This document shows, piece by piece, positions 1 through 43,411 of a DNA stretch of 64,000 nucleotides; the stretch's first letter is position 1, and each line of letters begins with the position of its first letter. The notes under the pieces were generated by a model. It was not told where the DNA came from and ran no database searches. It saw nothing but the letters and a program-made list of their open reading frames with translations. The stretch is taken from contig CBDHDG010000007.1 of the NCBI GenBank assembly GCA_965261595.1, positions 928,001 to 992,000 on the forward strand. The letters run 5' to 3'. Origin of the DNA: a bacterium (lineage in GTDB: Bacteria; UBA8248; JACPRG01; G963555815). The translations under genes were made by a program, and so were the position numbers.

Positions 1-133
1 CTTCGACTATCCGCACAATTGCTTCATCGGACGCATGATTCGGAGCGTGCACAACAACCTTTCTGTCACGCTCGATAGTGATCGTAACCTTCGTTCGTTT
101 TGAAGATCTTTTTACCGAATAGGTAATATCCAT
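1..133 (-). CDS. M48/YgjP (DUF45)-type metallopeptidase, N-terminal part; runs off the window edge
   Basis: Manual translation from ATG at 133 gives MDITYSVKRSSKRTKVTITIERDRKVVVHAP..., the typical YgjP-like N-terminus. It starts 5 bp after the hsdR stop, the usual position in type I RM operons. Confidence 0.75.
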   Translation of the reverse strand, partial: MDITYSVKRSSKRTKVTITIERDRKVVVHAPNHASDEAIVRIVE

Positions 134-138
134 CGTCA

Positions 139-3100
139 CTAGTCCGCGAAAAGAATCATGTCATTGTTCTTTTCAGCGATTTCCATAACTCGGCTAATGA
201 TGTGCGCACGATTCTTGATGAGGTCGGGCACTTTGGCGAACTCAGGCGCGAGCAAGGTTTTTTGGATCTCTGCTTTCAGCTTGTTGCGGGCCGGAATGCT
301 CTCCCAGAATCCTGCCAATTTCAGCTCTCTCTCAATAACGAGAGTAATCTGCTGTGTCAAATCTACTAGACAGCTGATTCGGTCTTCATCGTCGATGCCA
401 TAGACAGCATGCTCCTCAGCCACCTGAGACTGATCCACAGTCGGCTTATCTGCACCGAACAGCTCACGCTGAAACATTCGAAAGAATGGCATTTGCTTTT
501 TTCGATGCAATCCGTATGTTGGCTCGTTGCTGGCATTGATAATGCGCGCCCGCAGCTTCTCTAGTTCTTCGTAGATCTTGTTCCAGTTGTCGCGGAATTG
601 CTCAAAGATGACCGCCAGGGCTTCGGCGAAGGAGGCTCGCAGATCCGGATCATCGTCCAGGTCTACGTCGAGGTGGTGGCGGATCGCGTGCTCGATTTCG
701 GCCGCCTTGGTCTTGGTCCGGCGGTGCTCGCCGACACCCTTTTCGAAATCCTCGTCAAGGATCGAGATCGGCGGGACTTTGACATCGATGTCCCGGGACT
801 CGAGGTGGGCATCCGTGATTGCACGAAGCTTCGCCGGGATCCCCTTCATGCTCAGGCGCTGGTCGCGGAAGTGTTTTCCGGCGAGCACATTTATCTCGGC
901 GAGCGCCTTGTAGTCGCCCATGAACTCAAGGGCCTGGCGGGCCGGGAACAGGAGATTGAGCGACTTGGTCAGCCGCTTGAACGCCAGCATGAAGTCAAAG
1001 CGCAGGTCCTCGTCGTAGAACACATCGTAGAAGGCATCGTGATCGCTCATGTCCGTAAGTCCGTGCTTCTGGAGCAGGGCCATCACGGCGGCGTGGGCTT
1101 CCTCGAGTTCCCGCAACTCCTCATCGGGGAAGCTCAGGGCGTCGATGATCTCCTTCTGCTCGCGCTCGTCGTAGGTGTCGATCGCTTTCTTGAGATGGTG
1201 GCCAATGCCGACATAGTCCACCACGAAGCCCTTGTCCTTGGATTCGCCGCCCACGCGGTTCACACGGGCGATGGCCTGCAGCAGGTTATGGGCAACCACG
1301 ACCTTGTCCAGATACATCACCTGCTCGACCGGCGCATCGAAGCCGGTAAGCAGCATGTTGTTGATAATGAGGATCCCCAGGTCGCCGTTGACACCGTCTT
1401 CTTCACTGCCGAACGCCAGTTTGAAGCTCTTGATGCTCGCCTCGTGCCGTGACGAGTCGGAATACTCTTTGAGGTGGGGCAGGTCGTTGTGGCGTCTGGA
1501 GATCACGACGTCCGTCTTCATCGCCTTGAGGCGGTCCAAGTCCAGCTTGTGCCCGTATCGGCCTGCTCCAGCTTTGCGACCGCCGCCGCGAGCGCGGCGT
1601 CCAGGTGCTTCTTGTAGCGCACGGCAGCCTCGCGTGACGTCGCCACCACCTGCGCCTTGTAGCCGTTGGGGAACACATGCGCGAGGTAGTGCTCCACCAT
1701 GTCCCTGGCCTTGGTCTCGATGGTCAGCTCTGCCTCGAGATAGGCGTCCCGCGATCCGTACCCGAGGATGTCCAGACGCTGCTGGATGTTGTACTCGCTG
1801 AACACGTCCTCGAACGCCGCGTCCATCCAGCCCCGGTCGGGGACCTCCGCGTTGTGCGTGCGGCCCTCGTAGACGATCTCTAGCGTCACGCCGTCCTCGA
1901 TGGACTGGCGCATCGTGTACTTGTCGATGTAGTCGCCGAAGACTTGCTCGGTCTTGTCGATCGGCGTGTCCGTGTAGCCGATTTTGGCGGCGTTGGGGAT
2001 GCCCTTGTCGAGGTTGGCCCCAAGCAGCTTGTACTGCGATCGGTGGGCCTCGTCAGTCATGACGAGGATGTTGGGGCTGGCGTTCAGCTCCGGGAAGGTC
2101 TCGGTCAGGTCCGCCTCGCGGAACTTGTGGATCATCGCCATCACCAGGTCGGAGGTGTCGGCGCTGAGCAGTTCCTTGAGCCCCTTGATGCTGTCGGCCA
2201 GCTTCACCGTGAAGCCGATGCTCTGACTGGTCTCGGACAGCTGCTGTTCCAATTGGGTGCGGTCGGTAATGAAGACGACCTTCCAATTCGAGAGCTGCGC
2301 GTGACGGTACATCTCCCGAACCATGAACATCATGGTGAGCGACTTGCCGGAGCCCTGGGTGTGCCAGACGATGCCGCTGCGCTCGCGGGGATTACGGCCT
2401 TCGATAAGCCGCTTTACCGCCAACTTCACCGCACGGAACTGTTGGTAGCGGCCGACGATCTTGATCGTCTGGCCCTTATCATTCGTCGAGAACAGCGTGA
2501 AGGTCCGAATCAAGTCGAGCAGGTTGTCCCGGTCAAGCATGCCGGCGACGAGACGCTGCTGGTCGTTGGGGCTGCCTGAGCCGTGGTCCAGCTCGTCCAC
2601 GGTTCGTGGATACGGGTCGGCCCAGCGGTAGAAGTACTTCTCCGTGTGCGTGGTGATGGTGCCGAACTTGGCTTCCTGCCGGCAAGTCGCCACGACGAAC
2701 TGGTTGTAGTAGAAGAGCGGCGCATTCCCTTCCCTCTCGGCCCCGCGCTGCTCGCTGTAGCGGAGAAGCTGATCGATCGCCTCGGGAATCGCGTCCTTGA
2801 CCTTGGGCGATTTGCACTCGATCACCACCACTGGCAGACCGTTGAGGAACAGCACGACGTCGGGGATGATGTGGTGCTCGGTGCCGAGGACGCGGACCTT
2901 GAACTGGCAGACCGCGATGAAGCGGTTGTTGTCGCGGGTCCCAAAGTCCGCGAAGCGGACGGTCGGGCTCTTCTCGCCGCTCTGACGGTTCTCGCTGACA
3001 CTGGTGTTCTCCAGTAGGAGCTGGAACAGGTGCTTGTTGTTCTCCAGCAAACCGGTGCTCGGGAAGCTCGCGGTGAGCTGCTTGACGACCTCCTCGACCT

Positions 3101-3326
3101 GATCGTCTTCGAGCCAGGGGTTGATGACCTTGAGCCGCTCGCGCAGCACCGGCGTCATCACGACCTCGGTGAAGCTCTCCCGATGGGTGTCGGCCGGGGT
3201 CTGCTTCATGTCCGTCAAGTCGATGACCGCCCAGCCCAAGCCCGCAAGCTGGTCGAGCAGCGGCTTTTCGACGTGGTTGCGCTCGTCGAGGCGAAGTTCC
3301 TTGGCTGTGGTCGATTCCGTGCCCAT
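139..3326 (-). pseudogene. hsdR: Type I restriction endonuclease subunit R, frameshifted near 1550
   Basis: ORF 1518-3326 has the nuclease motif (PD..LFLNGLPVVVIECK), Walker A (HTQGSGKS) and DEAH. ORF 139-1539 has MLLTGFDAP and QAIARVNR. Frames join at ACG GG(G) CAC AAG. Motif III reads GYTDTP instead of G(F/Y)TGTP. Confidence 0.92.
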
Positions 3327-3340
3327 GGCCGCCTGCCCCT

Positions 3341-3991
3341 TTACTTATGTTCCATCGGATGCGATCCGAAGTGGTCCGGGAGATCGTCGAGCCTTTCGCG
3401 ACACCTGAACGTCAGCGTGACCTCGCCGGTGGTCTTTCGCGTCGTCCAGTAGTTGCCCCTTAGCTTTTGAGCCGGCTCCCCGATGATCTCGAAGAGCATC
3501 GCTCCATCATGTGGCTGACTGCGATCTGGTATCAGAACCGACGGAACACTTGTATAGCAATATGCCAGCTTGCGTACCTGCTCGTCATTGTCGATCCAAA
3601 AATCAGCGCAATAACTGCGACTGGTCATCTCAGCCGTGCGCATCACACAACTGATTCGGCCAAACGTCTGCCGTATCATCAGAAGCACCGGAATCGGGCC
3701 GGGAACTTCTCGGGTATCCGGGTTCTTCCAAGTCGTCTGAAGGTGCCCCTGCCAAGTGCCATCGAGGCAAGGAAACGGCACAAGCCAGTTCCGAAAGATC
3801 CGCCACTTCCAGGCGTACAGCACGAAAGCCATCCATACGATGAGCAGGATGGGCACCGTCTTGTAGGCGATCTTCAACGCACTCCAGACATCGCGGACCT
3901 CTGCCCCCGTTGCGAGTGCAACGGCGATGAAACAGACGGCGAAGAGGCCGAACATGAAGAATGCGAATGGTCTGACCTTGATGTTCTTCAT
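3341..3991 (-). CDS. cap15: CBASS Cap15-type effector (2 TM helices + SMODS-associated beta-barrel)
   Basis: Two hydrophobic N-terminal segments, then W.W...P.LDGTWQG, I.QT, LAYCY..P, H.G and L.G.YWT.R.T.G motifs. The start ATG overlaps the CD-NTase stop (ATGA, 3988-3991). Confidence 0.85.
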   Translation of the reverse strand: MKNIKVRPFAFFMFGLFAVCFIAVALATGAEVRDVWSALKIAYKTVPILLIVWMAFVLYAWKWRIFRNWLVPFPCLDGTWQGHLQTTWKNPDTREVPGPIPVLLMIRQTFGRISCVMRTAEMTSRSYCADFWIDNDEQVRKLAYCYTSVPSVLIPDRSQPHDGAMLFEIIGEPAQKLRGNYWTTRKTTGEVTLTFRCRERLDDLPDHFGSHPMEHK

Positions 3992-4890
3992 TGGTATCCG
4001 ATGTAGTCCCATGCTGCTTGCAGGAACTCATTCGCCTCCTGCCGTGTCCAGGGCTGGGCAAGACGGAAGAGGTACTTCAGCTCGTTGACCTCGCCCCATT
4101 CCGAGCAGTCATCATCCTTTCGCGTGCGGTTCCACAAATCCGCAAGTAGATGCCGGACGATCGCTGTGTACGTGTCCTTGCTGAATGCATCGACGTTAGC
4201 GTTCCAGACCAGGCACTCAATCAGGAACGACGGCGTCTTCTTGGCTATGGCGATCCCATCGTCCTGCATCCTGTCACGCAGCCGCTTGAGGATACGGATG
4301 ACCCGCTTGTACTTCCGTCCGGTTGCGGTGTTCCGTTCCACTCCGTTGTTGTAAGTCTGCTCCGGCCAGTTAATGACCCGCGAACCTGAGTCGGGATCAA
4401 ATGCGACCCCGGACAGATAATGATGGCTGCCGTCGGCATTCTTCCGCCCCGTGTACCAGCGGCACTCGAATGTCGGGACGACATCTGCGTCGATGCGGTA
4501 CGTGTTGGCATGGACGTCAAATGCCTTGTTGCCTCGCGTAACACCAGTCTTGCCGAAGTAGTCCTCCAGCACCTTCTGGACCATGCTTTTGAAATCGGCG
4601 AACGGAAGCGATTCCTCAACATGCCCGAACGTCTCCCGTGTCGTACCTTTCGGATAGTCGGGGAAAAACGCCGAGTCATAGCGCACGCAGATGTCCACGT
4701 CGCTGTTCTGCCGGACGTTGGTCCTCGCACGATACGACCCTTGGGCGAACACGGAAATGTCGAGGGCGGCAAGTTGCTCACTCGCTTTGATGGCCTTTCG
4801 CACGGCCGTCTCAGCATTGCTGCACTTATCGGCCTCGGTTTGGCCGGGTCCCTTCGACCATGACACGAGGTTCTCTTCGGAAATGTTCAC
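3988..4890 (-). CDS. cdnE: cGAS/DncV-like nucleotidyltransferase (CD-NTase, clade E/CdnE-like)
   Basis: QGSY...TNV...SDVDI, GNKAFDV, DADVVP, INWPEQ, PSFLIECLVWN and C-terminal QPW motifs; 300 aa. The GTG start overlaps the hsdS stop (GTGA). Confidence 0.9.
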   Translation of the reverse strand: MNISEENLVSWSKGPGQTEADKCSNAETAVRKAIKASEQLAALDISVFAQGSYRARTNVRQNSDVDICVRYDSAFFPDYPKGTTRETFGHVEESLPFADFKSMVQKVLEDYFGKTGVTRGNKAFDVHANTYRIDADVVPTFECRWYTGRKNADGSHHYLSGVAFDPDSGSRVINWPEQTYNNGVERNTATGRKYKRVIRILKRLRDRMQDDGIAIAKKTPSFLIECLVWNANVDAFSKDTYTAIVRHLLADLWNRTRKDDDCSEWGEVNELKYLFRLAQPWTRQEANEFLQAAWDYIGYQ

Positions 4891-6185
4891 GCGCCGACTA
4901 CCTGCTCCGGGCTCCCTAAGAGTGCGGTTACCCGACGATCTCCTGTAAGCAGGTCCTTCATGAGGCCACGCTTCTCTGCCTGCAACTTAGCGGTCAGGCC
5001 CTGGAGCCGCTCGTTGACCGACTGTTGCTCGTCAAAGATCCTCACGATGTGTTTCTGCTCGTTCGGCAGCGGGACACCTACCAAGGCGGCCTGCAGCTCA
5101 TCCATGTCAAACCGTTTGGTGCCATGCGTCGCAGTCGTGGTGAGCTTTAGGAACTGGTGAGAGTGTGACGAGAGCCAGTACGCCAGATAGCGACCCATGA
5201 GCCCCTGTTTGGGCACAATCGCCTTCACGTCCTGATTAAATACCACCTCCGTCCTAGAGACTCCTACCGGGAATGTGTGCGCCAAGATCATCCCGCGAAT
5301 GACAATGAACACCGTGCCGGTCGGCATGAGTCGGGCGCCCGCAGCGACGGCATCCCCGGTAATTGTGTCGATGCTCTGGTGAAGCTCAAACTGCTTCATG
5401 TCTTTTGGGCAGACCCACGGAACCCCTCCGCCCCAGAATCGCCGGATGGCCTTGGAGGGAGTCCCGCCGCTGAACCACTGGCCGCAGGAACCGAATGGCA
5501 TCGGATCCCACTCCACCGGAACCCGCCCGAGCGCGGAGTCCTTGAACTCGTGGAACTGTTCGGAGCGGAGGTTGCCGTGCTCGTCGATTCCTCGGGTGAG
5601 CAGGTCCTGCATGAGGCCGGTCTTGATGCGCTGCTGCTTGGCGATGAGCGCCTCGGTCTCCTCGATCGCCCGATCGACGGTCGAGAGCACGCGTACAATC
5701 ATCGATTGTTCACGGAGGTCAGCGGGGATGTCGACATTGACACCCTTGGTAAAGGCGGTCTTGAGGCCTGGCTGTGCCGAGCCCGAGATCTGCAGGCGGA
5801 TCTGCGCCTGCCCCAAATCAGACAAGAGTGAGTAGTAGAGGTATCCCTGCATTATTTAGTCAGGATCGCCGCGCAAGAGGAACACGTGTTCATTGATGCA
5901 GGCAACGAGAGCGCGGCCAGGGTGATACCAGCCAACCTTTCCTGTCTGAGCGCCGTCCTTATTAATCAGAACATCATTGTCACGCAGGTGCCCCTAGGTC
6001 ATTCTGTTGAAGAACGCGACCGGCACGCGCTTTACGTCCTCCAGCGTGACTCCTCCGGATTGCAGGATATTCTCGCCTCCAATGCTGAGCACTTCGCCGC
6101 CATCAATGGATGCACCGCCCGTGGGGCGAGAGCCACTCTCCAGTGTGGCGATCACGGTTTCCAGCGCTTCGTTCGACCACGTCAT
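4887..6185 (-). pseudogene. hsdS: Type I RM specificity subunit S with two in-frame nonsense codons
   Basis: One continuous frame: ...FNRMT*GHLRDNDVLINKDGAQTGKV...FLLRGDPD*IMQGYLY... (TAG 5994-5996, TAA 5856-5858). Two TRDs and the conserved IKTGLMQDLLT / KRGLMKDLLTG helices are present. Confidence 0.92.
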
Positions 6186-8879
6186 GACGACACTTCGAAG
6201 TAACCGAGGCCGACAAGATAGCCGTCAAGGGCCTTCAATGTCTGAGCGCGATTCGAGTCCAGCACCTGAGTGCTAATCGAGTACTTCTCCCATAGATTCT
6301 CGACGACTCGCACGAGCACCCGCTTCTCCGCATTGAAATAGCGGTCCAGCTCGGCGCGGGCGACGTCGTAGATTTTCTTCAGGATCAGGCGGCGAGCGTC
6401 GGCCTCGCTGATCTGGCCGCCGATCACCTTGAGCACCGCATCGACCTGGACAAGCCGGGCATTCAGCGCCTCCTTGTCCTTATCGAGCGCGGCAACGGTC
6501 TTCTTGTCGGCCTTCTTCTTCGGGTTCAGCCCGGCGAGACGGGCCTCTGCCTGTGCGATCAGCGCCTGGGCCTCGACCTTGAAGTCGTCGGCCCCGAGGC
6601 GCTTGAGTTCGAGCTTGAACTCCAACTCTGTGGCCTTTTCCTTGAGCGTCGCCTTGGCGTCCTTGCTCCGCTTCTCGATCGCCTTGATGGCCTTGTCGTG
6701 GTCCGTGAGGTTCTTGAGTTCCTTCTTAGCGGAAGCGCCGGCGCTGTCCTTCAGGTCGTCGATGAGTACCTTGAGGGCCTTCTTGATGACGGCGGCGGTG
6801 ACCTTCTCGTCCTCGTCGGGCTCGTAGCCGCTAACCTCCTGGGCGATCTCGACGGACTCGGACAGCTCGCCCTGGGCTTCGGCGATGGTCGCCTCCAGCG
6901 CCTCGATGGCGTCGGCCTCGGCCTGGAAGTACTCGGCAATGAGGTGTTCATCGGGGATGAGCGTGTGGTGCCAGCCGGTGGAGACGATGGTTTTGAGGTC
7001 GTAGCGGATCTGCTGCCACCAGTTGACGAAGACGCCGGCACTCTTGAACTCGTCGAGCACGCCCAACGGCACGAGCTTGGCCTTGAGGGTGGTGAGCAGC
7101 TCGTGGCGGACCTCGGGCATCTTCTTGCCGCCGTTGCCCGCATGCTGGAGCTGGGCGAAGTCGTCCCTGGCAACCGCCCACCAGGATTCGAGGGCGTCGT
7201 GGTGCCGGGTGAGAGTGCCCAGCAGCGCCGGGGCCGCTTCGAGCGTGGCCTTGATGGCGGGCCTGGCGTCGATGAACTCGCGAAAGGCGAGGTAGGCGGG
7301 ACGCTCGGGCTCGAAGAGTGAATCCGGGTTAACGCCGAACTTGGCGAAGTCGTCCGTGAGCGCAGCGACCTCCACCTCCGGGATTCCGCCGATGAGGTGC
7401 GCCTGGACATCCTCCGGCTCGGGGTTGGGCGTGTTGTCCACGTAGCGGCGGATGTTGAGGTTGTAGTCGTGGGTGTCCACGATCTCGGACTTAGGCACGA
7501 GGCGCGAGTGCTTGGGCAGCTCGCGCTTGTGGGTGAAGACGAAATCGATCTTCTCGATGTCCTCGGGGCGAAGCCGGTTCTGATTCTTGCCCTCTGCGTA
7601 TTCGCGATCGGCGTTGATGAAGAGGACCTTGTCCTTGAGTGCGTCGGGCTTGCTCTTGTTGCAGACCAGCACGCAGGCGGGGATGCCCGTGCCGTAGAAG
7701 AGGCCGGGCGGCAGGCTGACGATGGCCTCGATGCAGTCGTCATTGATGAAGAGCTCGCGGATGAGCTTTTCCTTACCACCACGGAACAGGACCCCGTGCG
7801 GCATGATCGTCGCCATCCGGCCGTTGGACTTGAGGCTGGCGAGCATGTGCTGCACGAACATGAGGTCCGCCTTCTTGCCGGACTCCGGGCACCACTCGCG
7901 GAAGCGACTGGTGAACTTCATGCCGGCGCGGCTGTAGTTCTGCGAGAATGGCGGGTTGGCGAGCACCCGGTCGAACTTGCGGATCTGGCCGTTGTCGAGC
8001 ATGAGCGGGTCCTCCAGCGTGTCACCGTTCTCGATCGTGGATCGGGTGATATTGTGGAGGATCATGTTCATGATGCAGATAGGACCAGACCGTTCCGTTG
8101 GAGTCCTGGCCGTAGAGGGCGAGGTCGTCGGCGTTCTGGCCCTGCTCTTCCACGTACTGGTGGGACTGAATGAGGAAGCCGCCGGAGCCGACCGTAGGGT
8201 CGTAGATGGTGTTGCCGGCCTCCGGCTGGGTGAGCTGGACGAGCAGGCGGACGACCTCGCCCGGGGTATAGAACTCACCGCCCTTCTTGCCGGCGCTGTC
8301 GGCGAAGAACTTGATGAGGTACTCGTAGGCGGCGCCGAGCAGGTCGGGGAACTCGAAGTTGTCGTTGACGAGGACGAACCCGGGCTGGCTGAAGTGGTCG
8401 AGCAGATCTTTCCACTTTTGGTCCGGGATCTTGGTCCTGCCCTTCACCGCGTTGAAGTCGATGTTGTTCTTCAGCACACCGGCGAGTGCATCGTTCTCGT
8501 CTTCGATGGCAGCGATGGCCTTATTGAGCATGTTGCCGATGTCGTGCTTTAGGTCCTTCAGGGCTGGCACGAGATCGCCGTTATCGTCCTTCCAGGGCTC
8601 GTGCCAGCGGGCTCTGACAGGGACAAAGAAAGTCTCGCCGTAGGATGTCTTGTCTTCGAGCAACTCGGCGACGAGATCCGGCTGGTCTTTGAAGTGTGCG
8701 AAGGTCTTCTTGTGGAGCTGCTCGCGTTTGCGGTCGAACTCGTCGGAAAGCCGCTTCAGGAACAGCATGCCGAAGATGAACTCCTTGAATTCCGAGGCGT
8801 CCATCTTGCCGCGCAGGATGTCGGCGGCCTTCAGGAGGAAGGACTCGAGCTGGGCGAGGGTGATTTTCCCTTGTTTCAT
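6182..8879 (-). pseudogene. hsdM: Type I RM N6-adenine methyltransferase subunit M with long C-terminal extension, frameshifted near 8081
   Basis: [46 protein letters not shown] in ORF 8022-8879; ANPPF and PHGVLFRG in ORF 6182-8278. One extra base at TGG TCC T ATC TGC. Confidence 0.92.
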
Positions 8880-9092
8880 CTTCTGCCCCCTCTCACGCTT
8901 CCGCCTCTGCCTTCCCCTTTTGCTTCTCGTACGCCTGCCGGACCAAGCCCATCACATATGGCTCTCTTCTGCATCCTATAGGAAATTTCCAGCGGCGCTC
9001 AGCAATTCATTCCTTCGTAATATACTGTATTATAACGATTTTCTTTCCTCCATCGCACCATCGCACCAGCCCGCTTGATCGGCACTGCCAAA

Positions 9093-9128
9093 TTGCGAAA
9101 GCACAGCGCAACCGGATTTGCGCACTAT
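9093..9128 (-). repeat. 36-bp dyad-containing site, inverted copy of 16389-16424
   Basis: Reverse complement atagtgcgcaaatccggttgcgctgtgctttcgcaa matches 16389-16424 at 31/36 positions. Confidence 0.8.
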
Positions 9129-9330
9129 CTGAGCTCGGCATGCCAGCGATTGACGCCCACGCCCCGGAACGCACGATTCCGGCCCCGGCCGGGTAGGAGG
9201 GGTCGTTGCGAGCCATCTTGTTCGGTCACGCAGTGACAGCGGTCTGGCAGCGAAACCCAGCCCCCGACACTCCGCTCCGCTGCCCTCCGGGGCGCTCGCC
9301 CGCCTCCCGCCGGTCCGCGTCGGCTGAACC

Positions 9331-9621
9331 CTAGCGCACCGCGTCGCGCAGCGTCTTGCCGGCCTTGAACGCGGGAGACTTCGAGACGACGATCTCGATG
9401 CTCTCGCCGGTCCTCGGGTGCCGCCCGGCGCGCGCCGGGCGGCACCCGACGGAGAACGTGCCGAACCGCGCGAGCGCGACCGTATCCCCCTTCGCAAGCG
9501 CGTCCTGAATCGCATCCAACACCCCGTCGACGGCCGCCGACGCCTCGGCCTTCGACAGCGAAACGCGGTTTGCCACCCGCGACACCATGTCTGCCTTGTA
9601 CACCATGTCTGCCTTGTTCAA
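9331..9621 (-). CDS. hup: HU-family DNA-binding protein with 6-aa N-terminal tandem duplication
   Basis: MNKADMV(YKADMV)SRVA...FGTFSV..RPARAGRHPRTGESIEI...PAFKAGKTLRDAV. TTG start at 9621 after GGGAGA. Confidence 0.9.
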   Translation of the reverse strand: MNKADMVYKADMVSRVANRVSLSKAEASAAVDGVLDAIQDALAKGDTVALARFGTFSVGCRPARAGRHPRTGESIEIVVSKSPAFKAGKTLRDAVR

Positions 9622-9760
9622 CTCTGCATCTCCCTCAACCGGATTCGATCCTGTCCGCGCGCGGGGACTACACGCTGCCCGGCCCCCGGCGGCAGGCGCG
9701 CGTCCCGCCTGTCCTTCAACGGCCCCGCTAAACCTCTCCACCGTACCAGAACCGCCTTGG

Positions 9761-10150
9761 TCAGTCCTTCGTCGCGCCGTCGGCCGCATCCGGCCTCCGT
9801 CCGCTCTCGACGATGCCGCTTGCGAGCACCTCCATCTGCTTCCTCAGCCCGGGATCCTCTCTGGGCCTGTCCCATTCCGAGGTCTCGCTTCGTCGATGAT
9901 CCCGTAGCGCCGCCAGCTCCGCTTCCTCCATGTTCAGAAGAAATGTGTACAGCTTGTCCACGATTTCGCGCATCGTCTGACCCATCTCGGTGGCGTCCAG
10001 ACGGGCCGCCGGGAGCACCACCGACCCGATCGCAAGTGCATGGCGATGGCGGCACCTGGAAGCGACCGGTGCGCCCTTCACCACCTGGAGGCCTTCACGC
10101 AGCAACGGGCTCTCAACCGCCGCCGCCGGTTGTGCGGATGCGGCGCTCAA
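9761..10150 (-). CDS. Hypothetical protein, probably a gene remnant next to the truncated IS1380
   Basis: ORF with a plausible helical C-terminus; no recognisable motif. Confidence 0.3.
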   Translation of the reverse strand: MSAASAQPAAAVESPLLREGLQVVKGAPVASRCRHRHALAIGSVVLPAARLDATEMGQTMREIVDKLYTFLLNMEEAELAALRDHRRSETSEWDRPREDPGLRKQMEVLASGIVESGRRPDAADGATKD

Positions 10151-10194
10151 CCGGACCCCGGATACCGTACGTGCGCCCGGTGCCGGGTTTGGGC

Positions 10195-11020
10195 ATAGAC
10201 CTCGGGGCTCGTAAAGGCGGCATCGGCCCGAAAGGAACGGCGAACATCAGCGTGCTCATAGCGGGCCGTGATGGGCTCCAACAACTTTCGCCACCCATCG
10301 GCGCTGTGAACGTTGCCCAGACGCAACATCGCCCCCTCGCAGTCCCCAAACGGGTTGAAGCAGAATAAGGGATGGTAGCAGAGGGAACCGAAGTGACCGT
10401 TATAGGCAGTCCCTTCCTGCTGTCCGTGCACCCGGCTTTCCGAGCTATCCATGTCCAGGATGACCCGCTGATGCGGCGTGCGGCTCATGGCCCGCTCTAC
10501 CCATTCCGTGTTCAGTTGCCTCAGCCTACTCAGGTTCTCCTCGCTGCAGAGAACTTCAGTCTCGAACCGGCTCCATGTGTTGGTGCTGGCCGCCTGCTTC
10601 TCAAGTGCCCGCCGGCCAACTACGGCTTGCCTAGCAGGGTCTCTCGCCAATCGCTCGGCATCGTTGGTGTCCTCGTACCCGGCCAGGCGACTATAGACTG
10701 ACTGGCGCAATAGCGGCACCAACTCATGCTGGACGTTCCGGCCATGACGGATCTCTTGCAAGTGGGCTGGCGCTCTCACCGTCAAACCCAGCGCATCATC
10801 CAACTCCCGGCAGGCCAGCAATCCTGCATCTGAAGTGATTCTGGCTCCGTGAAAGTCAAGCCTCAGCTTACGGTTACAATGGACCCTCAATGCCGTCTTT
10901 TTCGCTTCACCCATAGGGGTACCCCGCGAGAACGTGGCAGGGGGAAGCCAACACGCTGATTTTACAAGAAAAAGCGCCTTTCGGTCTGTCGAATCTTATG
11001 ATCTAAATGGGAAATGCGGG
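10195..11020 (-). mobile_element. IS1380-family element, 3'-truncated
   Basis: Transposase from ATG 10914 (ITSDAGLLA..ELD, GYEDTNDA, LDMDSSES, FRADAAF). Terminal sequence cccgcatttcccat at 11020 is shared with the copy ending at 18518. Similarity stops at about 10195. Confidence 0.88.
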
Positions 11021-13310
11021 TGAATACGATGGCGCGAGGCCACCGTTCTTCCGGAATCCCATCACTGATGTAGACCCACCACGGCCGCGAGGCGGATTCG
11101 ACACAAGCCAACACCTCCCCGTGGGCCATGTGTCCAGGGCTGAAGTATTCCTCCCGACCCTGGATTTCATCGAAATGGCCGCCCGCCGGTTGACGCTGGA
11201 TGCTGACCCATGAATCGCCGTCGGGGGCTCTTGCGGCGTGGCGGTCAAGGGCGGTTCGCACTTTGTGGCGCATCGGTAGCAGGAAGTCGCTGTGCAGATA
11301 GAGCGTCCCCGCGCTCATATTCTCCGGCGCGAGCTCGAAGCCAACCCAGTATGCGAAGGCAACCAGGTTGAGGAACCCGCGCAGGTTCGGAAGGAGAATG
11401 CCCCTTTCCTTCAGTTCGTCGACCTGCTGGAGCAGCTTCCAGGCCCGCAGTGCGGTGAAATCCGGCAGGCTTCCCAGAAGCATAAAATCGGACGCGGATA
11501 CGCAAAGCCGCTGCCAGCCGGGCGGAAAGTCTGGAAGGTCTTCCAAAGTCGGCGAGAACCTCCGCCCGACGCCGCCGTGCACGAGAACCGTCAGGCCTCT
11601 CCGGTAGTCCTGTCTACTCGCAAGGGCCGACGCACGCTCCCGGATCCGCTTGCAGACCGCCTCCTCAAGCGGACGGATACTGGCGAGCCCTGCCTCGCCG
11701 GCAGCCTCGAAATCATCCGGGACGAAGACCAGATGGACATATCCGCTTTCGTCGAACGTCCCGATGAACTCCCGCATGCCGTCGTCGGGATCCGGCTCTG
11801 GCATCTCGATGTATCCGACACCCCAACCCGGGCGCCCCAACAGGAACGCTTCCGAAAATTGCGCCAAGTGCCATGTCGATTGGAATGGCCGTAGGTCTCC
11901 TGCCGCCGCAGCCTGCTCAATCGCGAAACGCCTGACCGCCGTACCAATCGCGGTTGGGACAGCGACTGTCGTGCACCCCTTGAGCCGCACCAGGGGGCGA
12001 CGTTCCAGCGCTGGGTGACCCATCGTCTGTCCGGCGAGCGAGCCCGCATGCTCGTTTTGAATGACGAAGGGGTAGAGGGCCCCCGGCCCGACCCCTATCG
12101 CGGCCAGGTCCTCGTCGCTGAAAACGACATGACGACTCGATTCCTTCACCGCTGAATCGCGGAGGACGATCTTTTCCCCCGGCGTGCTTTCCGTGCGGGT
12201 GTAACGCTCCGCCCCGGCCCGTTCGGCCAAGGCCTCGCTCAAGCGCAGCAAAGCCATGATGTGTCCTAGGGCCTCCCGCGCCCAAGGACGCTCTTCTCCG
12301 ATCCTGAGCAGCGTCTCGGTGCAGGCTCTCACATATTCTGCGTTGTTTTCCCAGCGCCCCTGGAACAACCGTGCGTTCCCGAAACTCGCCTCCACATTCG
12401 AGACAAAGACATCCTCGATCGGGATCTCTAGCTTCGCGATCGGGTCCTCGTCGATCTCGGTCAGCCACTCGCGCAACTGCTGTAGGCCCGGCTTCTTCCT
12501 GCCCCGGCAAGCCAGCGCGGCCAGATGAAGCAGCGCTTCGATTCGGGCGGTCGCCGTGTGGTTCTCTGGACGGGTCAGCAGGCCGGAAAGAAGCACAGCT
12601 ACCGCGGGGAAACTGTATTTCCGGAGGCGCCTTAGCAATCGGGCTTGACGCGCCGCTATGCCTCGGAGGTCCCGCACCTTGGCTCCTGCAGCGTCCGCGG
12701 ACAGCAATCTGGCGGCTTCGCCCTGAGGGTCCAGAGGTTCGCTCTCTTCTACGATAGCAACGAAAGCATCCAGGTCAGCAATGACCCCCGAAGCTGCCTT
12801 TGGAGCGGATTCGGCCAGAATCGAGGCCAAGGTTTCCTTCGGCTCATTGGCGATTCTGGCTGCGTCTTCATGGCGTCCCATGGCGCGCGCGGTTTCGACC
12901 ATGGAGTTCCGCAGGCCGTCGAGCGCCTCGTCCGGCATACTGGCGATCCACCCCGCCATGTCGGTGTCGGGCGGGGCTATGAAGACATGCGCGCCGACAG
13001 CGAACAGCGCGGCCTGCATCGCGAAGTCGCTCACCTTCTCCGGGGCTTCCGGCGCCAAGACTGCGAGGGCATCCGCAACTGCGGCGGCGAGAAGTCGCTC
13101 GGCTCCGGCAACGGCACCGGGATCGATCCCGCCATCGCTCACCTTCGAGTCCGGTTCCCTTGCCGCCCGCCGGACGAGCGAGTCCTTGGATGCAGCGATT
13201 GCGGCCTGCCGCTCGGCACGGGTGAAAGACTGCAAAGCGTTATTGAATGTCATCGTCAACGCATTCCGATCCAGTCTTGAAGCGACTCCCCGCGGGCCGT
13301 TCCACTTCAA
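11021..13310 (-). pseudogene. Large hypothetical protein truncated by IS1380 insertion
   Basis: About 760 codons open; the last residues (ISHLDHKIRQ...) are read from the IS end. Contains a conserved-looking block GLLT.PE....RIE.L.HLA / EDVFVSNV...GNARLFQG.WE. Confidence 0.7.
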
Positions 13311-13722
13311 TGAGGCGCCGAGGCCGGATTACCAGATAGCGCCCGGGACCGACCCACGGGGGCCCTTCATGCCGGAGCGGTCGGACCGCGGCGCGGTATC
13401 TTCATCGAGTGCTAGAAATTTCCTATCCGCCATAGGAAAGGCGGACACCCTTTTGCCCGGATTCGGCCAAAAGTCTAATCGACGGCACGCGCCCAACCTT
13501 CCGTCAGTGCACTGATGGCAGTGAAGCAGGCCTCGGGCCAAACTGACCACCATCGGCTTCGGTAATCGCACCACCCAACGACCGAACACACACCCGCCGT
13601 CATCGTCACCCGCTGACCAAAGCCTTACTCGCCACCGCCGCGCATCCCGGCTGGTTGCACGCTTCCGTCCCCGCAATTTCGGCGGCCTCGGTGTGCCGCC
13701 CGACATTGCGCTGTCCCGCCCT

Positions 13723-15134
13723 TGGAGTTACTCGTTTCAGTGGACAGTTTAGGGCTGTCCCCTCCAGCCCTGAGTTGGGCGACAGCCGGTGGACGTAAAG
13801 TCTTCCCCAAGATCGGTGGATAGGATATCGCTGGAGGGGATATCTTTCCCTTTGGCTCACCGCTCCAGCAAGCACCGGGCACCCCTCGGGCCGGACGATG
13901 AACGTTGCGCACTGCACCCGGCGTTGCCTTCGCCGCGTCGCGTTCGAAGTCGTTGGGGCTGAGGTAACCCAGGGCGGAATGACGATGGCGTGGGTTGTAC
14001 CAGCCTTCGATGAATTGGAAGATCGCCATGCGCGCCTGGGCCTGGGTACGGAACGAACGCCGGTCGATGAGCTCGCGCTCCAGCGTGGCGAAAAAGCTCT
14101 CGGCCATGGCGTTATCAAAGCAGTCCCCGGCCGACCCGGTCGAGGGAAGCACCCCCATCTCCCGGCATCGTTTGCCAAAGGCGAGCAAAGTGTACTGCGT
14201 TCCCCGGTCCGAATGATTCACGACCCCATAGGGCCGGCGCTGTCCCAGCGCCATGTTGAGCGCCCCGAGCACCAGTTCGGTGCGAAGATGATGGGCCATG
14301 CACCACCCTACGATCCGGCGGCTGAACACGTCGAGCACGACCGCTAGGTACACGAACCCCGCCCAGGTCGGCACGTAGGTGATGTCGGCCACCCAGATTC
14401 GGTCCGGTGCATCGGCCTGGAACTGGCGTTCGACCCGGTCCGGGACCGCACGATGACTCGGGTCCAGACGCGTGGTGCGCGTGCCCCGGCGCCGGCTCAC
14501 CCCGGCCAAGCCCGACTCGCGCATGAGACGAGCCACCCGTTTACGGCCCACCCGGCAGCCGCCGGCCATCAGCCCGGCATGCACCCGAGGTGCCCCGTAC
14601 GTGCCACTAGAGGCCTCGTGGAGGGTCCGAATCATGCCGCGCAGCTCCTCGTCGCACCGGGTACGAGGTGAACGCCCACGGCCTCGCCACGCATAGTACC
14701 CGCTGGGGGAGACGCCCAGCACCCGGCACATCGTGGCCACCCGATGACAGGCTTGGTTCGCCTTCACGAGCCCGAAGACCTCCCCGGCACCGAGCCGGTC
14801 TCCCGTGCGAACCAGACCGCGGCTTTTTTCAGGATCTCCCGTTCCTCGCGAAGCTGACGGTTCTCCCGGCGAAGCCGGGGCGCAGCTCCTCGAGATTTGA
14901 GCTTGTCAGACCGTCCTCACGACGGCCCTCGTCGCGGTCGGCCTGGCGCACCCAGTTGCGAATCGCCAAAGCGGAACACTCGAACTCCCGGGCCAGCTCC
15001 CCGGGCGTACGGCCCGAGCGAACCAACTCGACCATCTGGCGCCGGTACTCCGGCGCGTAGGGCGAATGAGTCTTTCGCATCTGAACACCTCCTGCGCACA
15101 GTCTGAAGGTGTCCACGAAAACGGGTCAACTCCA
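13723..15134 (-). mobile_element. IS3-family insertion sequence (orfA about 15080-14829, orfB from 14767)
   Basis: Terminal inverted repeats TGGAGTTGACCCGTTTTCGTGGACA / TGGAGTTACTCGTTTCAGTGGACA. DDE motifs WVADITY, HSDRGTQY, DNAMAESFF. A-rich frameshift site (AAAAAAG) at the orfA end. Confidence 0.92.
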
Positions 15135-16850: not shown

Positions 16851-18518
16851 CCGGAATTTCCCATATCAACTTGCTTGGGTGGTTTCCGGTCCCCTTTCCC
16901 GATGAAAACCAGTTGACCCCCTTCCGATGGGTTTGTCAAGAGCCTTCCAACCCTCCGCAACAAGGTGCTGACGGCCATCGACTGCCCCAAAAGGCGGACC
17001 CTCGCCCTTCGGTCCCCTTTGTTCGCGGTTCAACCCGTTAACCAATCACCTCATGCTGCCGGGAACCCTCTGCACAAGGTTAGACCGGCACCGGCCGTAA
17101 TCGGTTGATTCGGTCCAGGATGATGGCGAACTCTTCCCTGGACACCGCTACTTCGGCCAATTGAAAGATGATCTACCGGGCGTGCCGCACAATCCTCCCG
17201 CCCATTTTGATGAGCTTGACCTGGAGGCTTCGCAGCGACCAGTGCTTGAGCCCCCTGGGCAAGGCTAGCCTGCGCAGGAAATTGCCCAGGTTGTACGCCA
17301 GGACGAAGAGAAGGAGCCGCACCTGGTTGCACACGAACCGGTGACAGGAAAGGCGTGTCCAGTTCAGGGCGTACTTGCCTTCCTTGATCCATTGCTCGGC
17401 TGTGCCTCGCTGGTTGTAGAAGTGCACGACCCCCTCGGGTCGAGCCGTCAGGTTCGTGACAATGAATCCGACGCGAGGGAAGAGTTCGCCTGAGTGCCAT
17501 TCCACCTTCGCCACGACCCGCCGGGAACGGTCCCAGCTTCCAGCCTGATACCGGAAGTCGTAATAGAAGATGATGGGTCTCTTGGGCGGGCGACCGACCG
17601 GGCGGGTGAGGAGGAAGTCGATCTCTCGCTGCACCACGTCGTTGGCGGGAAGGCGGATGGCGTAATGGAAGCTGTGCGCTTCCAGGCACTCATAGACCTC
17701 CGGGCGCGCAAAGGCGGCATCGGCTCGGAAGTAACGGCGAACACCCGCCCGCTCATACCGGGCCGCGATGGGCGAAAGCAACTCGCGCCAGCCATCGGCG
17801 CTGTGCACGTTGCCGGGGCGCAACATCGCCCCTTCGCAGTCCCCGAACTGGTTAAAGCAAAAAAGAGGGTGATAACAGGTGCAACGAAAGTGGCCGTTGT
17901 AGGCCGTACCTTCCTGCTCCCCATGGACGGGGCTTTCCGAGCTGTCCATGTCCAGGATGATTCGCTGATGGGGTGAGTGTGCCATGGTCCGGTCCACCCA
18001 CTCCCGGTTCAGCTCGCTCCGGCCCCTTGAGATTCTCCTCCCTGGTGAGAACCTCGGTCTCGAACCGGCTCAGGGTGTTGGCGCCCGCCGCCTGCTTCTC
18101 AAGCGCTCGGCGGCCGACCACGGCTTGCATCGCGGGGTCCTGGGCCAACCGCTCGGCATCGTTGGTGTCTTCATACCCTGCCAAGCGGCTATAGACCGAC
18201 TGGCGCAATAGCGGCGCCAACTCATGCTGGATGTTCCGGCCATGACGGATCTCTTGCAATTGCACTGGCGCTCTCACCGTCAAACCCAGCGCATCATCCA
18301 GCTCCCGGCAGGCCAGCAATCCCGCATCCAAAGTGATTCTGGTTCCGTGAAACTCAAGCCTCAGCCGACGGTCAAAACGGATCTTCAAAGCCCCCTTCTT
18401 CGCTTCACCCATTGGGTCCCCTCGCAAGATGATGGCAGGGGGAGGCCAACACCTTGATCTTACATGAGAAAACGGCATTCGGTCCGACAAAACTTATGAT
18501 CCATATGGGAAATGCGGG
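16851..18518 (-). mobile_element. IS1380-family element, full length; transposase 18412-17080 has a frameshift (about 18025) and a premature TAG (17173)
   Basis: TIRs ccggaatttcccatat / cccgcatttcccatat; motifs LDMDSSES, RADAAF, YNQRGTAEQWIKEGK. Confidence 0.92.
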
Positions 18519-42200: not shown

Positions 42201-43411
42201 GAATGAGGTTGGGGGGGCGACGGATCTTCACGGGCATCATCCGGGACTTGACCGCCCACAAGACCATCGAGAACCGAATTCACCAGGCGGAGCGGATGGA
42301 AAGCACCGGGATCCTGGCGAGGGGGATCGCCCATGATTTCGGGAATCTTCTGACCTCCATCCAAGCCAATCTGATGCTGGCGTTGACGGAAATGAAGCCG
42401 GCCGATCCGGGATTTATTCATCTCTCCCGCCTCAGCCAGGCCGCCAACCGGGCCGCCGAGCTTGTCACCCGGCTCCGCGCGCTGGGCCGGGATCTCCCCA
42501 TTCAAAAGCGGCGGGTCAATCTGAACAAAGAGCTGCAAACTGTCCTTGATCTCCTCCCGGCAATCATTCCGGACCCCATCGAAGTCGAAATTCAACCCTG
42601 CCGGGAGATCTGCACCACCCAAGCGGACCCGGCTTTTCTCCAGGATACGTTGATCAATCTTTGCCTGAACGCCAAAGACGCCATGCCGGAAGGCGGGCGT
42701 TTGAGTATCGGGATCGAGCGCCTTCTGCTCGAGGCGGGCCATCCGGATCTGAGGCGGGACATGGCGCCGGGAGCGTACGACTGCATCTCCGTTCGCGACA
42801 GCGGCAAGGGAATGACCCAAGACGTGCGGGACAAAATCTTCGAACCTTTTTTTACGACCAAAGGATCCAGCAAAGGGACAGGCCTCGGTTTGCCCATGGT
42901 GCAGCGGATTGTCAAGGAGCATAACGGGTTCATCAACATCGAGAGCAAACCGGGCGAGGGGACGACTTTCTGGGTGTACCTTCCCGTCCCGCAGATGGAG
43001 CCCGCCGGCCCGGACTTTCCGGGCGCCGACCGTCTGGCCTCCGGAAAGGGGGAGCGTATCCTGCTCATCGACGATGACCTGCTCGTTCTGGACGTGATCG
43101 AGGAAATGCTCAGCGCCTGCGGCTACGAGGTGACAACCGCGACCTGCGGCCAGGAAGGCGTCCAATTATTCAGCGAGGCGCCGGAGCATATCAACCTGGT
43201 TCTGACGGACGTTGTGATGCCGGATTTTTCCGGCCGGGAGGTGTTCCGCCGGATCCGGAAGATGCGGGGGGACGTGAAGGTGCTGTTCTCGAGCGGCAAC
43301 CAAGTCGAGCTTCCCGAGGCCGTCGAAGAGAACGGAGCCGCTTTCATTCAAAAACCTTACTCGTTGTCAGAGCTCCTGAAAGGAATCCGGCAGATGCTGG
43401 ACAGACCCTGA
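39229..43411 (+). pseudogene. Multi-GAF/PAS hybrid histidine kinase-receiver; in-frame TAG at 40804 and frameshift/deletion about 42210
   Basis: About 4 GAF repeats (AAIAIEN.RL), 3 PAS (RDITERKRAE), H-box AHDFGN, N/G boxes (FFTTK..GTGLGL), REC (TDVVMP). Confidence 0.9.

Follow-up and report, generated by a model that had tools for sequence, protein, structure and literature searches.

The stretch of bacterial DNA that we analysed (the window; 64,000 nucleotides) carries a two-gene anti-phage CBASS in the hsdS-hsdR slot of a type I restriction-modification (RM) operon in which hsdM, hsdS and hsdR are all broken. We consider it probable that this CBASS is an interchangeable defence cassette in a hypervariable hsdS-hsdR slot, with a trigger independent of the Hsd proteins, in an operon whose RM part has been inactivated. 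The locus clearly exemplifies a known pattern rather than a novel system guarded by restriction, because the CBASS is one of many interchangeable cargo cassettes and the hsd genes are broken.

Anatomy of the locus and the CBASS pair

The features of the locus are as follows.

1..131, minus strand: 5' end of a ygjP-like metallopeptidase gene (PGAP 'M48 family'), start ATG at 131, running past the left edge of the window
139..3326, minus strand: hsdR pseudogene, +2 bp frameshift near 1548, ORFs 3326-1518 and 1539-139
3341..3991, minus strand: Cap15 effector, 216 aa, intact, ATG start (Pfam Cap15_CD_rec, PADLOC 2TM effector)
3988..4890, minus strand: CD-NTase of the CdnE clade, 300 aa, intact, GTG start (PADLOC Cyclase PDLC00801, E 3.6e-126)
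4887..6185, minus strand: hsdS pseudogene, in-frame TAG at 5996-5994 (codon 64) and TAA at 5858-5856 (codon 110)
6182..8879, minus strand: hsdM pseudogene, +1 bp frameshift near 8082, ORFs 8879-8022 and 8278-6182

The order hsdM-hsdS-CdnE-Cap15-hsdR-YgjP/M48-like, all on the minus strand, followed from the ORF list, Pfam and PADLOC, and the junctions were read directly from the sequence. Both the gene order and all four junctions of the original prediction were borne out. The hsdM/hsdS junction is an ATGA overlap (6185-6182), that of hsdS and the CD-NTase a GTGA overlap (4890-4887) and that of the CD-NTase and Cap15 an ATGA overlap (3991-3988); 14 nt separate the Cap15 stop codon (3343-3341) from the hsdR ATG at 3326. 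The 'M48' gene is present after hsdR as predicted, and proved to be a YgjP-like metallopeptidase, but it lies outside positions 139..8879, to which the operon had been assigned. A whole-genome search located the complete gene at C7:927453-928160 (match to a home-made YgjP profile, E 1.8e-108), and its orthologue in locus L002 matched Pfam YgjP-like (E 2.1e-55). This is the usual final gene of the RM operon family to which the window belongs.

The overlapping stop and start codons would place the CBASS within the hsd transcription and translation unit, and it would thus be co-expressed and co-mobile with the RM system. The earlier claim that there is no space for an intergenic promoter held as to the gaps between genes, but promoters may lie within coding sequence; a consensus scan found 2 promoter-like sites versus 2.2 expected. 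Transcription of the CBASS together with the hsd genes, as had been proposed, is plausible given the missing intergenic gaps. Further, contigs from the RNA libraries of two studies span the CBASS genes and one of them bridges hsdS-CdnE-Cap15, but these contigs may contain DNA, and they are variants of 95-99% identity and not the exact sequence of the window.

The CBASS pair corresponds to a minimal type I CBASS, as originally identified. A profile of alignment A1 matched the solved CdnE cyclic dipyrimidine synthases 7x4f, 7x4a (ClCdnE), 7x4c (EfCdnE) and 6e0m over the full length (E 1.2e-89 to 4.8e-68), and the GS, DxD and D residues are common to these enzymes and the window CdnE; this likeness is at the level of sequence. 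By profile match, the window cyclase thus appears closest to cyclic-dipyrimidine synthases. The catalytic G-S...D-x-D...D signature (G51, S52, D64, D66 and D136) showed no variation across two alignments (25 and 34 sequences) that include the window. Cap15 consists of two N-terminal hydrophobic segments, with hydropathy peaks beginning at residues ~4-15 and ~38-48 (19-aa window), and a cyclic-dinucleotide receptor domain; it matched Pfam Cap15_CD_rec (E 4.3e-17, 63 bits versus a cut-off of 31.2) and the PADLOC 2TM effector profile PDLC00702 (E 3.3e-81), and phmmer found no homologue of solved structure. Neither Cap2/Cap3, HORMA/TRIP13 nor other ancillary cap genes were found beside the pair using Pfam and PADLOC, and its direct neighbours are hsdS and hsdR.

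Broken hsd genes beside an intact CBASS

All three type I RM genes are present with their characteristic domains (Pfam, PADLOC), and none has an uninterrupted frame. In hsdM, which is of the long form (~890 aa) with a C-terminal coiled-coil extension, Pfam HsdM_N and N6_Mtase are spread over two frames, and the two pieces match positions 2-251 and 251-757 of PADLOC MTase_I PDLC03031. The HSDR_N, SWI2_SNF2 and T1R_D3-like domains of hsdR are likewise spread over two frames. DNA alignments against loci L001, L002 and L059 attributed these frameshifts to one extra base in hsdM and two extra bases in hsdR. hsdS (Pfam Methylase_S, PADLOC Specificity_I) is interrupted by two stop codons: the TAG also occurs in the paralogous copy on C6, and a Gln codon stands there at the position of the TAA. 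Further, the substitution G453D in hsdR, one of three private changes at 312 conserved columns, hits the TGTP helicase motif, which is otherwise invariant. Apart from the breaks, the hsd genes hold few private substitutions, and the RM system therefore appears to have been inactivated recently, by independent lesions in hsdM, hsdS and hsdR. In contrast to the broken hsd genes, CdnE and Cap15 are intact, and any defence left at the locus would therefore come from the CBASS alone.

Two other readings of these lesions have to be weighed. The lesions might be sequencing or assembly errors, or chimeras of paralogues, with the RM system in truth intact. The assembly is MAG-like (96.7% complete, 5.6% contaminated, 7 contigs), the genome holds 2.5 near-identical copies of the operon flanks, which invite mis-assembly, and contigs in runs X2, X15 and X16 are free of the extra base at 8082 and of the two extra bases at 1548. 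However, the C6 paralogue is in frame at both sites and may be the origin of these indel-free contigs. Stop-creating substitutions, not indels, account for two of the lesions, and the indels lie outside homopolymer runs longer than 2. The C7 copy shares the TAG with the C6 copy and the hsdM frameshift with the C5 copy; in run X1, possibly the source sample, a contig of 681 nt is identical across both hsdS stops; and rpoB is a single open frame of 1371 aa. An artefact is thus very unlikely. The other reading, that the whole locus is a dead relic, in which the CBASS frames are intact since too little time has elapsed, is also unlikely, if somewhat less so. It is consistent with the recency of the lesions, with the IS-rich genome (the element at window positions 10194-11020 is matched, in full or in part, over 100 times), with several other split hsd genes in the genome and with the truncation of a neighbouring Upx-like defence gene. 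Further, the upstream stops and frameshift could lower expression of the CBASS through polarity, and its present-day activity is therefore uncertain. On the other hand, CdnE and Cap15 retain all catalytic and near-invariant residues, differing at 2 of 78 and 1 of 66 conserved columns, respectively, which is inside the leave-one-out range of their relatives, and the RNA-library contigs cover both genes. An in-frame ATG at 5852, four bases past the second hsdS stop, could also serve as a restart for a 321-aa C-terminal product, judging from the sequence, and could re-establish translation into the CdnE start.

The CBASS as one of many cargos of the hsdS-hsdR slot

To survey the slot, we used 65 loci of the HsdR family (at least 66% identity) with hsdS upstream. 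The slot was empty (gap of 250 bp or less) in 18 loci and held cargo of 0.3-8.3 kb in the other 47, in agreement with the expectation that it hosts alternative defence or abortive genes. CdnE and Cap15 were found in 7 loci and GmrSD in 18. The other cargos were DRT1a, GajAB (Gabija), KwaAB (Kiwa), Avs3, SIR2-HerA, AbiP2, SoFic, RhuM/PDC-S05, PDC-S02/S06/S39/S60, McrBC, Schlafen-AlbA2, PIN, IS200 and a second, unrelated CBASS with a different cyclase and SLATT pair. At least 15 unrelated cargo types, or none, thus occupy the slot of orthologous operons, which points to a property of the slot and not of the CBASS.

Traces of exchange were also found. Between Cap15 and GmrSD, loci L001 and L002 carry a duplicate of the window-type hsdR 5' end that is 24 codons long, and such hsdR 5' stubs occur in 6 of 80 HsdR loci. 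In the same genome, a paralogous operon (C6:15137-29366), with flanks 98.2-98.9% identical to those of the window, carries DRT1a, a stub and GmrSD as cargo, and its hsdS TRD2 differs from that of the window. The stubs and the differing cargo of the paralogue indicate that slot cargo turns over by recombination.

We next consider the cyclase side. Of the related CdnE loci, 73 offered 1300 bp or more of upstream sequence, and in 15 of these 73 the end of hsdS lay within 60 bp of the cyclase start; hsdR or hsdM followed downstream on the same strand in 12 of the 15, and the sequence ended first in the other 3. Both M-S-[]-R and R-S-[]-M operons show this tight junction. CdnE is at an hsd operon in 22 of 80 loci; these operons fall into two main architectures and come from no fewer than three distant hsd families, and all four metagenome loci have the order M-S-CBASS-R. 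The hsdS-CdnE arrangement is thus far beyond chance. In architecture B, genes for DarT-Macro, Fic and DUF4062 are stacked after the CBASS; GmrSD-like genes and DarT-Macro also stand beside the CBASS in relatives of the window locus.

Overall, hsd genes adjoin 23 of 81 entries and the remaining 58 lie elsewhere, and the window's own CdnE clade (36 members) divides into 18 hsd-associated members and 18 others; the hsd calls in relatives rest on home-made profiles, with Pfam run on 100 of the 201 neighbour ORFs of non-hsd loci, and the non-hsd count is therefore possibly too high. Half of the clade thus stays with hsd genes, as the original prediction would have it, but the other half lies away from them, which amounts to half of what had been named beforehand as contrary to it. 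These contexts are a position after BREX PglZ-BrxL and the neighbourhood of MmeI/Eco57I-type methylases, AAA_13 with GmrSD, ApeA, DndB or housekeeping genes. On the CdnE tree, the starred branches force at least 8 changes of the hsd label, and the sister pairs L018/L027, L025/L030, L026/L028 and L053/L043 differ in genomic context.

The original prediction had proposed a CBASS guarded by or coupled to the RM system, firing when phage anti-restriction proteins disable the Hsd complex. In such a PrrC-like guard, CdnE would be silenced by the Hsd complex or would monitor it, and the CBASS would be a dedicated back-up for the RM system. The infection-sensing mechanism of most type I CBASS cyclases is still an open question, which leaves room for this idea. 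The position between hsdS and hsdR is identical to that of prrC, the CdnE start codon overlaps the hsdS stop, and both the recurrence of CdnE directly after hsdS in two operon orders and the hsd association of half of the clade agree with such a guard. We nevertheless find it not supported and highly improbable. The members away from hsd genes include close sisters of embedded ones, the slot of orthologous operons holds many unrelated cargos or none, and hsdM, hsdS and hsdR are all broken, yet the CBASS shows no excess change. Further, HsdS TRDs that are only 36-38% identical stand next to CdnE proteins that are 82-84% identical, and any contact of CdnE with HsdS would therefore need the conserved HsdS core, which binds HsdM. 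A different but related system, the RM-flanked CdnE03-Cap15 pair, is also active in a heterologous host with defective hsdR, where phage cabRNA activates it, according to passages of a published study (PMC10686824). A related reading takes the CdnE-Cap15 clade as an hsdS-linked specialist, in which a functional tie would account for the fixed position directly after hsdS, with overlapping codons, across two unrelated operon orders. If so, the cyclase would read the state of HsdS/HsdM or restriction products, as a PrrC-like guard against anti-restriction, and the non-embedded members would be escapes that acquired other triggers. The hsd association of half of the clade and the always-tight hsdS junction in two unrelated operon orders go beyond what a generic defence island would give and may stem from selection for coupling to HsdS or to Hsd expression, which speaks against the cargo explanation; we still rate the specialist reading as most improbable.

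In the preferred explanation, that of an exchangeable cassette, a CdnE-clade cyclase and the two-TM membrane effector Cap15 would form a minimal type I CBASS riding just downstream of hsdS in the long hsdM-hsdS-[cargo]-hsdR-ygjP operon of a widely transferred RM family. Defence would be layered, with restriction first and abortive infection second, and we infer that the CBASS, if active, is triggered with no need for Hsd proteins. Cargo would be exchanged via recombination at the conserved hsdS core and the hsdR 5' end. Against an IS-rich background, the genome of the window would have lost the RM part recently, with the CBASS genes still intact.

Comparison with known systems

Passages of Banh et al. 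(2023; PMC10686824) describe Ssc-CdnE03 and Cap15 of Staphylococcus schleiferi, which are natively flanked by type I RM. As described, it shares with the window CBASS the two-gene type I make-up, the clade-E cyclase and the two-TM Cap15 effector (PMC10686824). From a site inside a defective hsdR, Ssc-CBASS protects S. aureus RN4220, with phage RNA as the trigger; its host is Gram-positive, and it was shown to work outside its RM context (PMC10686824). Its product is cGAMP, whereas the window cyclase is by profile closest to cyclic-dipyrimidine synthases.

PrrC of the prr/EcoprrI locus resembles the window CBASS as an abortive-infection effector encoded in the hsdS-hsdR slot, in the orientation of the hsd genes. 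EcoprrI masks PrrC, and T4 Stp activates it. According to a preprint, defence genes are often embedded in type I RM systems, and for PrrC this is the almost exclusive location (Payne et al., 10.1101/2024.01.29.577857, Fig. 6C legend), whereas this exclusivity is not found in the window's CdnE clade, with 18 of 36 members at hsd genes. The word CBASS is absent from the main text of that preprint, the scope of our search (10.1101/2024.01.29.577857).

TgvAB of V. cholerae VPI-2 and DarTG2 of the EPEC RRDM island are embedded in type I RM operons, according to sections of two papers (PMC11411939, PMC12255303), the latter of which proposes the hsdS-hsdR site as a recombination hotspot (PMC12255303). 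These systems and the HEC/PDC candidates are, like the window CBASS, independent defence modules in the hsdS-hsdR slot in the same orientation; the window differs from them in that its cargo is a CBASS and its RM part a set of pseudogenes. The CBASS genes have the strand of the hsd genes that enclose them, and their site varies across orthologous operons, which places the locus in the 'guilt-by-embedding' class. Published work thus already documents defence genes inside type I RM operons, and the window adds a CBASS example.

The operon and its junctions

Pfam and PADLOC were run on the ORFs of the window, and every gene of the locus was found on the minus strand.

8879->6182, minus strand, hsdM (HsdM_N and N6_Mtase; long form with a C-terminal extension of ~400 aa)
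6185->4887, minus strand, hsdS (Pfam and PADLOC)
4890->3988, minus strand, CD-NTase, 300 aa (PADLOC Cyclase PDLC00801, E = 3.6e-126)
3991->3341, minus strand, Cap15, 216 aa (Cap15_CD_rec, 63 bits; PADLOC 2TM effector, E = 3.3e-81)
3326->139, minus strand, hsdR (Pfam and PADLOC)
first 131 nt within the window, minus strand, YgjP-like ("M48") peptidase gene, present whole in the genome

The predicted junctions, namely ATGA, GTGA and ATGA overlaps followed by a 14-nt spacer ahead of hsdR, were all exact, and there was no intergenic room between the hsd and CBASS genes. A CdnE-family profile matched solved CdnE enzymes (7x4f, annotated as "cyclic dipyrimidine nucleotide synthase", ClCdnE, EfCdnE and 6e0m) with E-values from 1.2e-89 to 4.8e-68. 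Further, the catalytic residues G51-S52, D64-x-D66 and D136 of the window CdnE are invariant in family alignments. Because of these matches and residues, CD-NTase and Cap15 together are, as judged from sequence, a minimal CdnE + Cap15 CBASS of type I. The N-terminus of Cap15 possesses two hydrophobic segments; a phmmer comparison of Cap15 with PDB sequences gave no match. Upstream of the operon lies an HU-family DNA-binding gene (9331-9789, minus strand; Bac_DNA_binding, E = 2.6e-27) with an N-terminal extension of ~60 aa, separated by an intergenic region of ~450 bp with an AT-rich stretch just before hsdM.

A consensus scan of positions 1-9600 detected two promoter-like sites (2.2 expected) and nine terminator-like sites (7.5 expected), numbers no different from chance. 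Contigs were compared from two metatranscriptome libraries, each of a different study; such libraries can hold DNA. In them, the depth of CBASS was similar to that of hsdR and hsdM. The RNA-run contigs left 5891-6510 and 8991-9300 uncovered, and one contig of 1716 nt (95% identical) spanned Cap15, CdnE and the 3' 680 nt of hsdS. Because of the possible DNA content, and because a bridging contig is no proof of one continuous transcript, this is a weak hint of hsdS-CdnE-Cap15 co-transcription.

CdnE-Cap15 pairs and the contents of the hsdS-hsdR slot

Such nucleotide systems are reportedly sometimes combined with RM systems. A pattern scan with one genome per species yielded 80 CdnE loci at 48-84% identity, many of which are short MAG contigs and, where related, not independent. 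The hsd genes were called among all ORFs of these loci with home-made profiles iterated from the intact operon of Rhodanobacter ginsengisoli (L002), by which divergent hsd genes may be missed. By these profiles an hsd operon was present at 22 of the 80 loci. Among the 73 loci whose upstream sequence reached 1300 bp or more, hsdS ended ≤60 bp from the cyclase start in 15. Thus, the arrangement recurs, but by these profiles the majority of the pairs are located elsewhere.

Same-strand hsdR or hsdM followed downstream in 12 of the 15 tight cases, and the sequence ended in the remaining three. In three further loci (L016, L026 and L034) hsdS lay 0.5-1 kb upstream of the cyclase, and the short contigs L056 and L041 likewise carried hsdS upstream of it. 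In L076 the pair was enclosed by hsdM and hsdS, and in L053 it came directly after ygjP. Two architectures were observed: the window type, M-S-[CBASS]-(GmrSD)-R-YgjP (architecture A), and R-S-[CBASS]-(other cargo)-M, with an unrelated hsd family (architecture B; L015, L017, L022, L025, L026, L031 and L036). Further distant hsd families (25-37% identity) were found in L034, L037 and L076. A metagenome scan with the window CdnE found only four short loci (75-85% identity), all four with S-CBASS-R. The nearest CdnE relatives known as proteins are 94% identical; in 40 related genomes, a CdnE search detected no orthologous locus and only one distant match (34% identity).

In a quick IQ-TREE analysis of 81 cyclases, each ORF cut to its C-terminal 305 aa, the window CdnE fell into a clade of 36 rows (SH-aLRT 98), in which 18 rows were hsd-associated and 18 were not; outside the clade, 5 of 45 were. 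Architectures A and B formed sister subclades. The hsd label required 15 changes on the tree, at least eight of them forced by starred branches, and close sisters of unlike context included L018/L027, L025/L030, L026/L028 and L053/L043. Of the 201 ORFs closest to the pair at non-hsd loci, 100, those of L003-L047, were examined with Pfam. Here the pair followed BREX PglZ-BrxL (L010) or an MmeI-like enzyme (L014), lay beside an Eco57I-type methylase (L032), or was flanked by a helicase/T5orf172 pair and AAA_13 + GmrSD-Schlafen genes (L038). Its other neighbours were ThiF/DUF6791, ApeA, DndB, or plain housekeeping genes.

A search based on an alignment of six HsdR proteins gave 80 related loci from many phyla, with identities of 66-100%; 65 of them possessed a same-strand upstream hsdS. 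In these, hsdS and hsdR overlapped at one extreme (-22 bp) and were 8341 bp apart at the other, the distance being ≤250 bp in 18 loci and larger in 47. CdnE + Cap15 was found in seven loci, which are the same records as L001, L002, L008, L016, L018, L033 and L059, and a GmrSD-family gene in 18. Other cargo was identified by Pfam on 68 of 85 ORFs (the 17 left out were mostly short or on the minus strand) and by PADLOC on 28 chosen ORFs. It comprised the defence systems DRT1a, GajA/GajB, KwaA/KwaB, Avs3, SIR2-HerA, AbiP2 and SoFic, and further RhuM/PDC-S05, PDC-S02/S06/S39/S60, McrBC, Schlafen-AlbA2 proteins, PIN and IS200. In one orthologous operon (L157:3776-5654), the slot was occupied by another cyclase-effector pair, SMODS-AGS_C cyclase PDLC00796 with a SLATT_6 2TM effector, followed by GmrSD and a Schlafen-Fic protein. 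Two abortive systems were stacked in one slot in an R-S-[]-M operon (L022:10001-13373), in which DarT and a Macro-domain gene (DarTG-like) lie between CdnE-Cap15 and hsdM. CBASS was also stacked in architecture B with HTH-M78/DUF4411/Fic (L017) and DUF4062 (L031). The constant element is the slot, not CBASS.

Broken hsd genes, stubs and paralogous operons

In the window, hsdM carries one surplus base near 8082, hsdS an in-frame TAG at codon 64 and a TAA at codon 110, and hsdR two surplus bases near 1548 as well as G453D in the invariant TGTP helicase motif. The window HsdR departs from 61 relatives in 3 of 312 and in 1 of 183 conserved positions, and the C-terminal part of HsdM differs at 6 of 230 (2.6%, slightly over the relatives' 90th percentile). 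Because the hsd genes look normal outside the lesions, their decay is recent. CdnE and Cap15 differ at 2 of 78 and 1 of 66 conserved columns, respectively, no more than their relatives do in a leave-one-out comparison. That the CBASS genes have stayed intact while all three neighbouring hsd genes are broken speaks for a module independent of the proteins of its host operon.

The lesions were read from the assembly and could, less probably, represent sequencing or assembly error or a mix-up of paralogues; among contigs of four runs that were compared, those of X2, X15 and X16 are without exactly these surplus bases at 8082 and 1548. However, these contigs may be derived from a paralogue of 98-99% identity, the indels of hsdM and hsdR lie outside long homopolymers, and rpoB of the same genome is one open frame.

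A second operon is present in the same genome (C6:15137-29366, on contig C6; L168 among the HsdR loci). Its flanks are 98.2% (ygjP-hsdR) and 98.9% (hsdS 5' half-hsdM) identical to the window, and between them a different hsdS TRD2, a 1286-aa DRT1a, an hsdR stub and GmrSD replace CBASS. The hsdM and hsdR of C6 are frameshifted too, at sites other than those of the window; the hsdS TAG is common to the copies on contigs C6 and C7, and C6 encodes Gln at the position of the window's TAA. A third, partial copy (C5:722439-725003) is 99.8% identical and has the same hsdM frameshift as the window.

Stubs, that is, short duplicated hsdR 5' ends, were detected in 6 of the 80 HsdR loci, right after hsdS in L096, L099, L104 and L106; L102 and L141 possess one too. 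Stubs of the CdnE loci, the HsdR loci and the genome itself are located as follows.

L001:11551-11640, hsdR 5' stub
L002:11551-11640, hsdR 5' stub
L096:7889-7993, hsdR 5' stub
L099:6128-6214, hsdR 5' stub
L104:727-828, hsdR 5' stub
L106:468-620, hsdR 5' stub
C6:21161-21543, hsdR 5' stub in the same genome as the window

The stubs are ~24-76 codons long and lie upstream of cargo, after hsdS or between stacked cassettes, with a full hsdR past the cargo. They look like the trace left when a cassette enters the hsdR 5' end and the gene is restored, as would happen, for example, in single-crossover integration. In L001 and L002, 14 nt past Cap15 are followed by a 24-codon hsdR 5' copy, GmrSD and a functional hsdR. 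Because this copy matches the N-terminus of the window HsdR and not that of L001 and L002 themselves, the Cap15-hsdR junction of the window type is the older state, and GmrSD came with a new hsdR 5' end. Loss of GmrSD from the window by deletion was rejected on account of the same stub. Constant co-travelling of CBASS with hsdS TRD2 was also rejected, as HsdS is only 36-38% identical beside CdnE of 82-84% identity.

The genome shows strong IS expansion, as an IS at 10194-11020 is matched, in full or in part, more than 100 times across all seven contigs. Transposase genes (DDE_Tnp_1_4, rve/IS3, IS66) lie at 10147-11026, 13625-14767, 17173-17997 and 22342-23466. A 782-aa ORF (10962-13310, minus strand) without a Pfam hit matched positions 28-570 of the 1271 of PADLOC "Upx" (E = 6.8e-61) and is probably a truncated defence gene; it adjoins an IS fragment and lies 2 kb ahead of hsdM. 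Elsewhere in the window (39229-42336, plus strand), two ORFs 45 bp apart, with three GAF domains and with GAF and several PAS domains, respectively, may be one broken sensor gene.

Cargo or guard

The original prediction held that the CBASS may be guarded by the RM system or coupled to it, and may fire once phage anti-restriction proteins disable the Hsd complex. A PrrC-like guard role of CdnE-Cap15 is an improbable alternative. In its favour, the link with hsdS is, for the clade of the window CdnE, unusually close and unusually common. However, the idea is weakened by the 18 clade members that are not embedded, by variable HsdS beside conserved CdnE, by the broken hsd genes of this genome and by the S. 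schleiferi precedent described in PMC10686824. Co-folding of HsdS and CdnE of L002 gave a score of 0.00 (mark, 0.32), which counts neither for nor against this role.

The best-supported account is that CBASS is cargo in a recombination-prone slot. As such cargo, it would be co-expressed with the RM operon, move along with it and supply a second, abortive layer of defence with a trigger independent of Hsd, and here it would have outlived the RM genes. On present evidence the locus does not open a new mechanism. It is a clear natural example of type I RM operons serving as platforms on which abortive-infection modules accumulate and are swapped: one operon family holds CBASS, GmrSD, DRT1a, Gabija, Kiwa, Avs and others in the same slot across phyla, insertions are marked by duplicated hsdR 5' stubs, and a single genome holds two paralogues distinguished solely by cargo and hsdS TRD2. 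These features are relevant to the assembly of defence islands and to gene discovery through "guilt-by-embedding", and the intact operon of the cultured strain R. ginsengisoli offers material for testing the tie between embedded CBASS and Hsd.

According to the main text of the preprint by Payne et al. (10.1101/2024.01.29.577857), type I RM, BREX and DISARM often hold embedded genes, 96.7% of which are oriented like the host system; PrrC is hardly ever found other than embedded in type I RM, and GmrSD-like genes are common cargo. The word "CBASS" is absent from that main text, and our literature search found no paper on systematic CBASS-hsdS linkage. Worked examples of embedded defence are TgvAB (PMC11411939) and DarTG2, which lies between hsdS and hsdR (PMC12255303), a site termed a potential recombination hotspot in the latter paper. 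The closest parallel to the present locus in kind of CBASS is described by Banh et al. 2023 (PMC10686824), in which a CdnE03 + Cap15 operon of S. schleiferi is flanked by type I RM, its cyclase is activated by phage RNA, and the CBASS protects S. aureus RN4220 when integrated in the defective hsdR of that strain.
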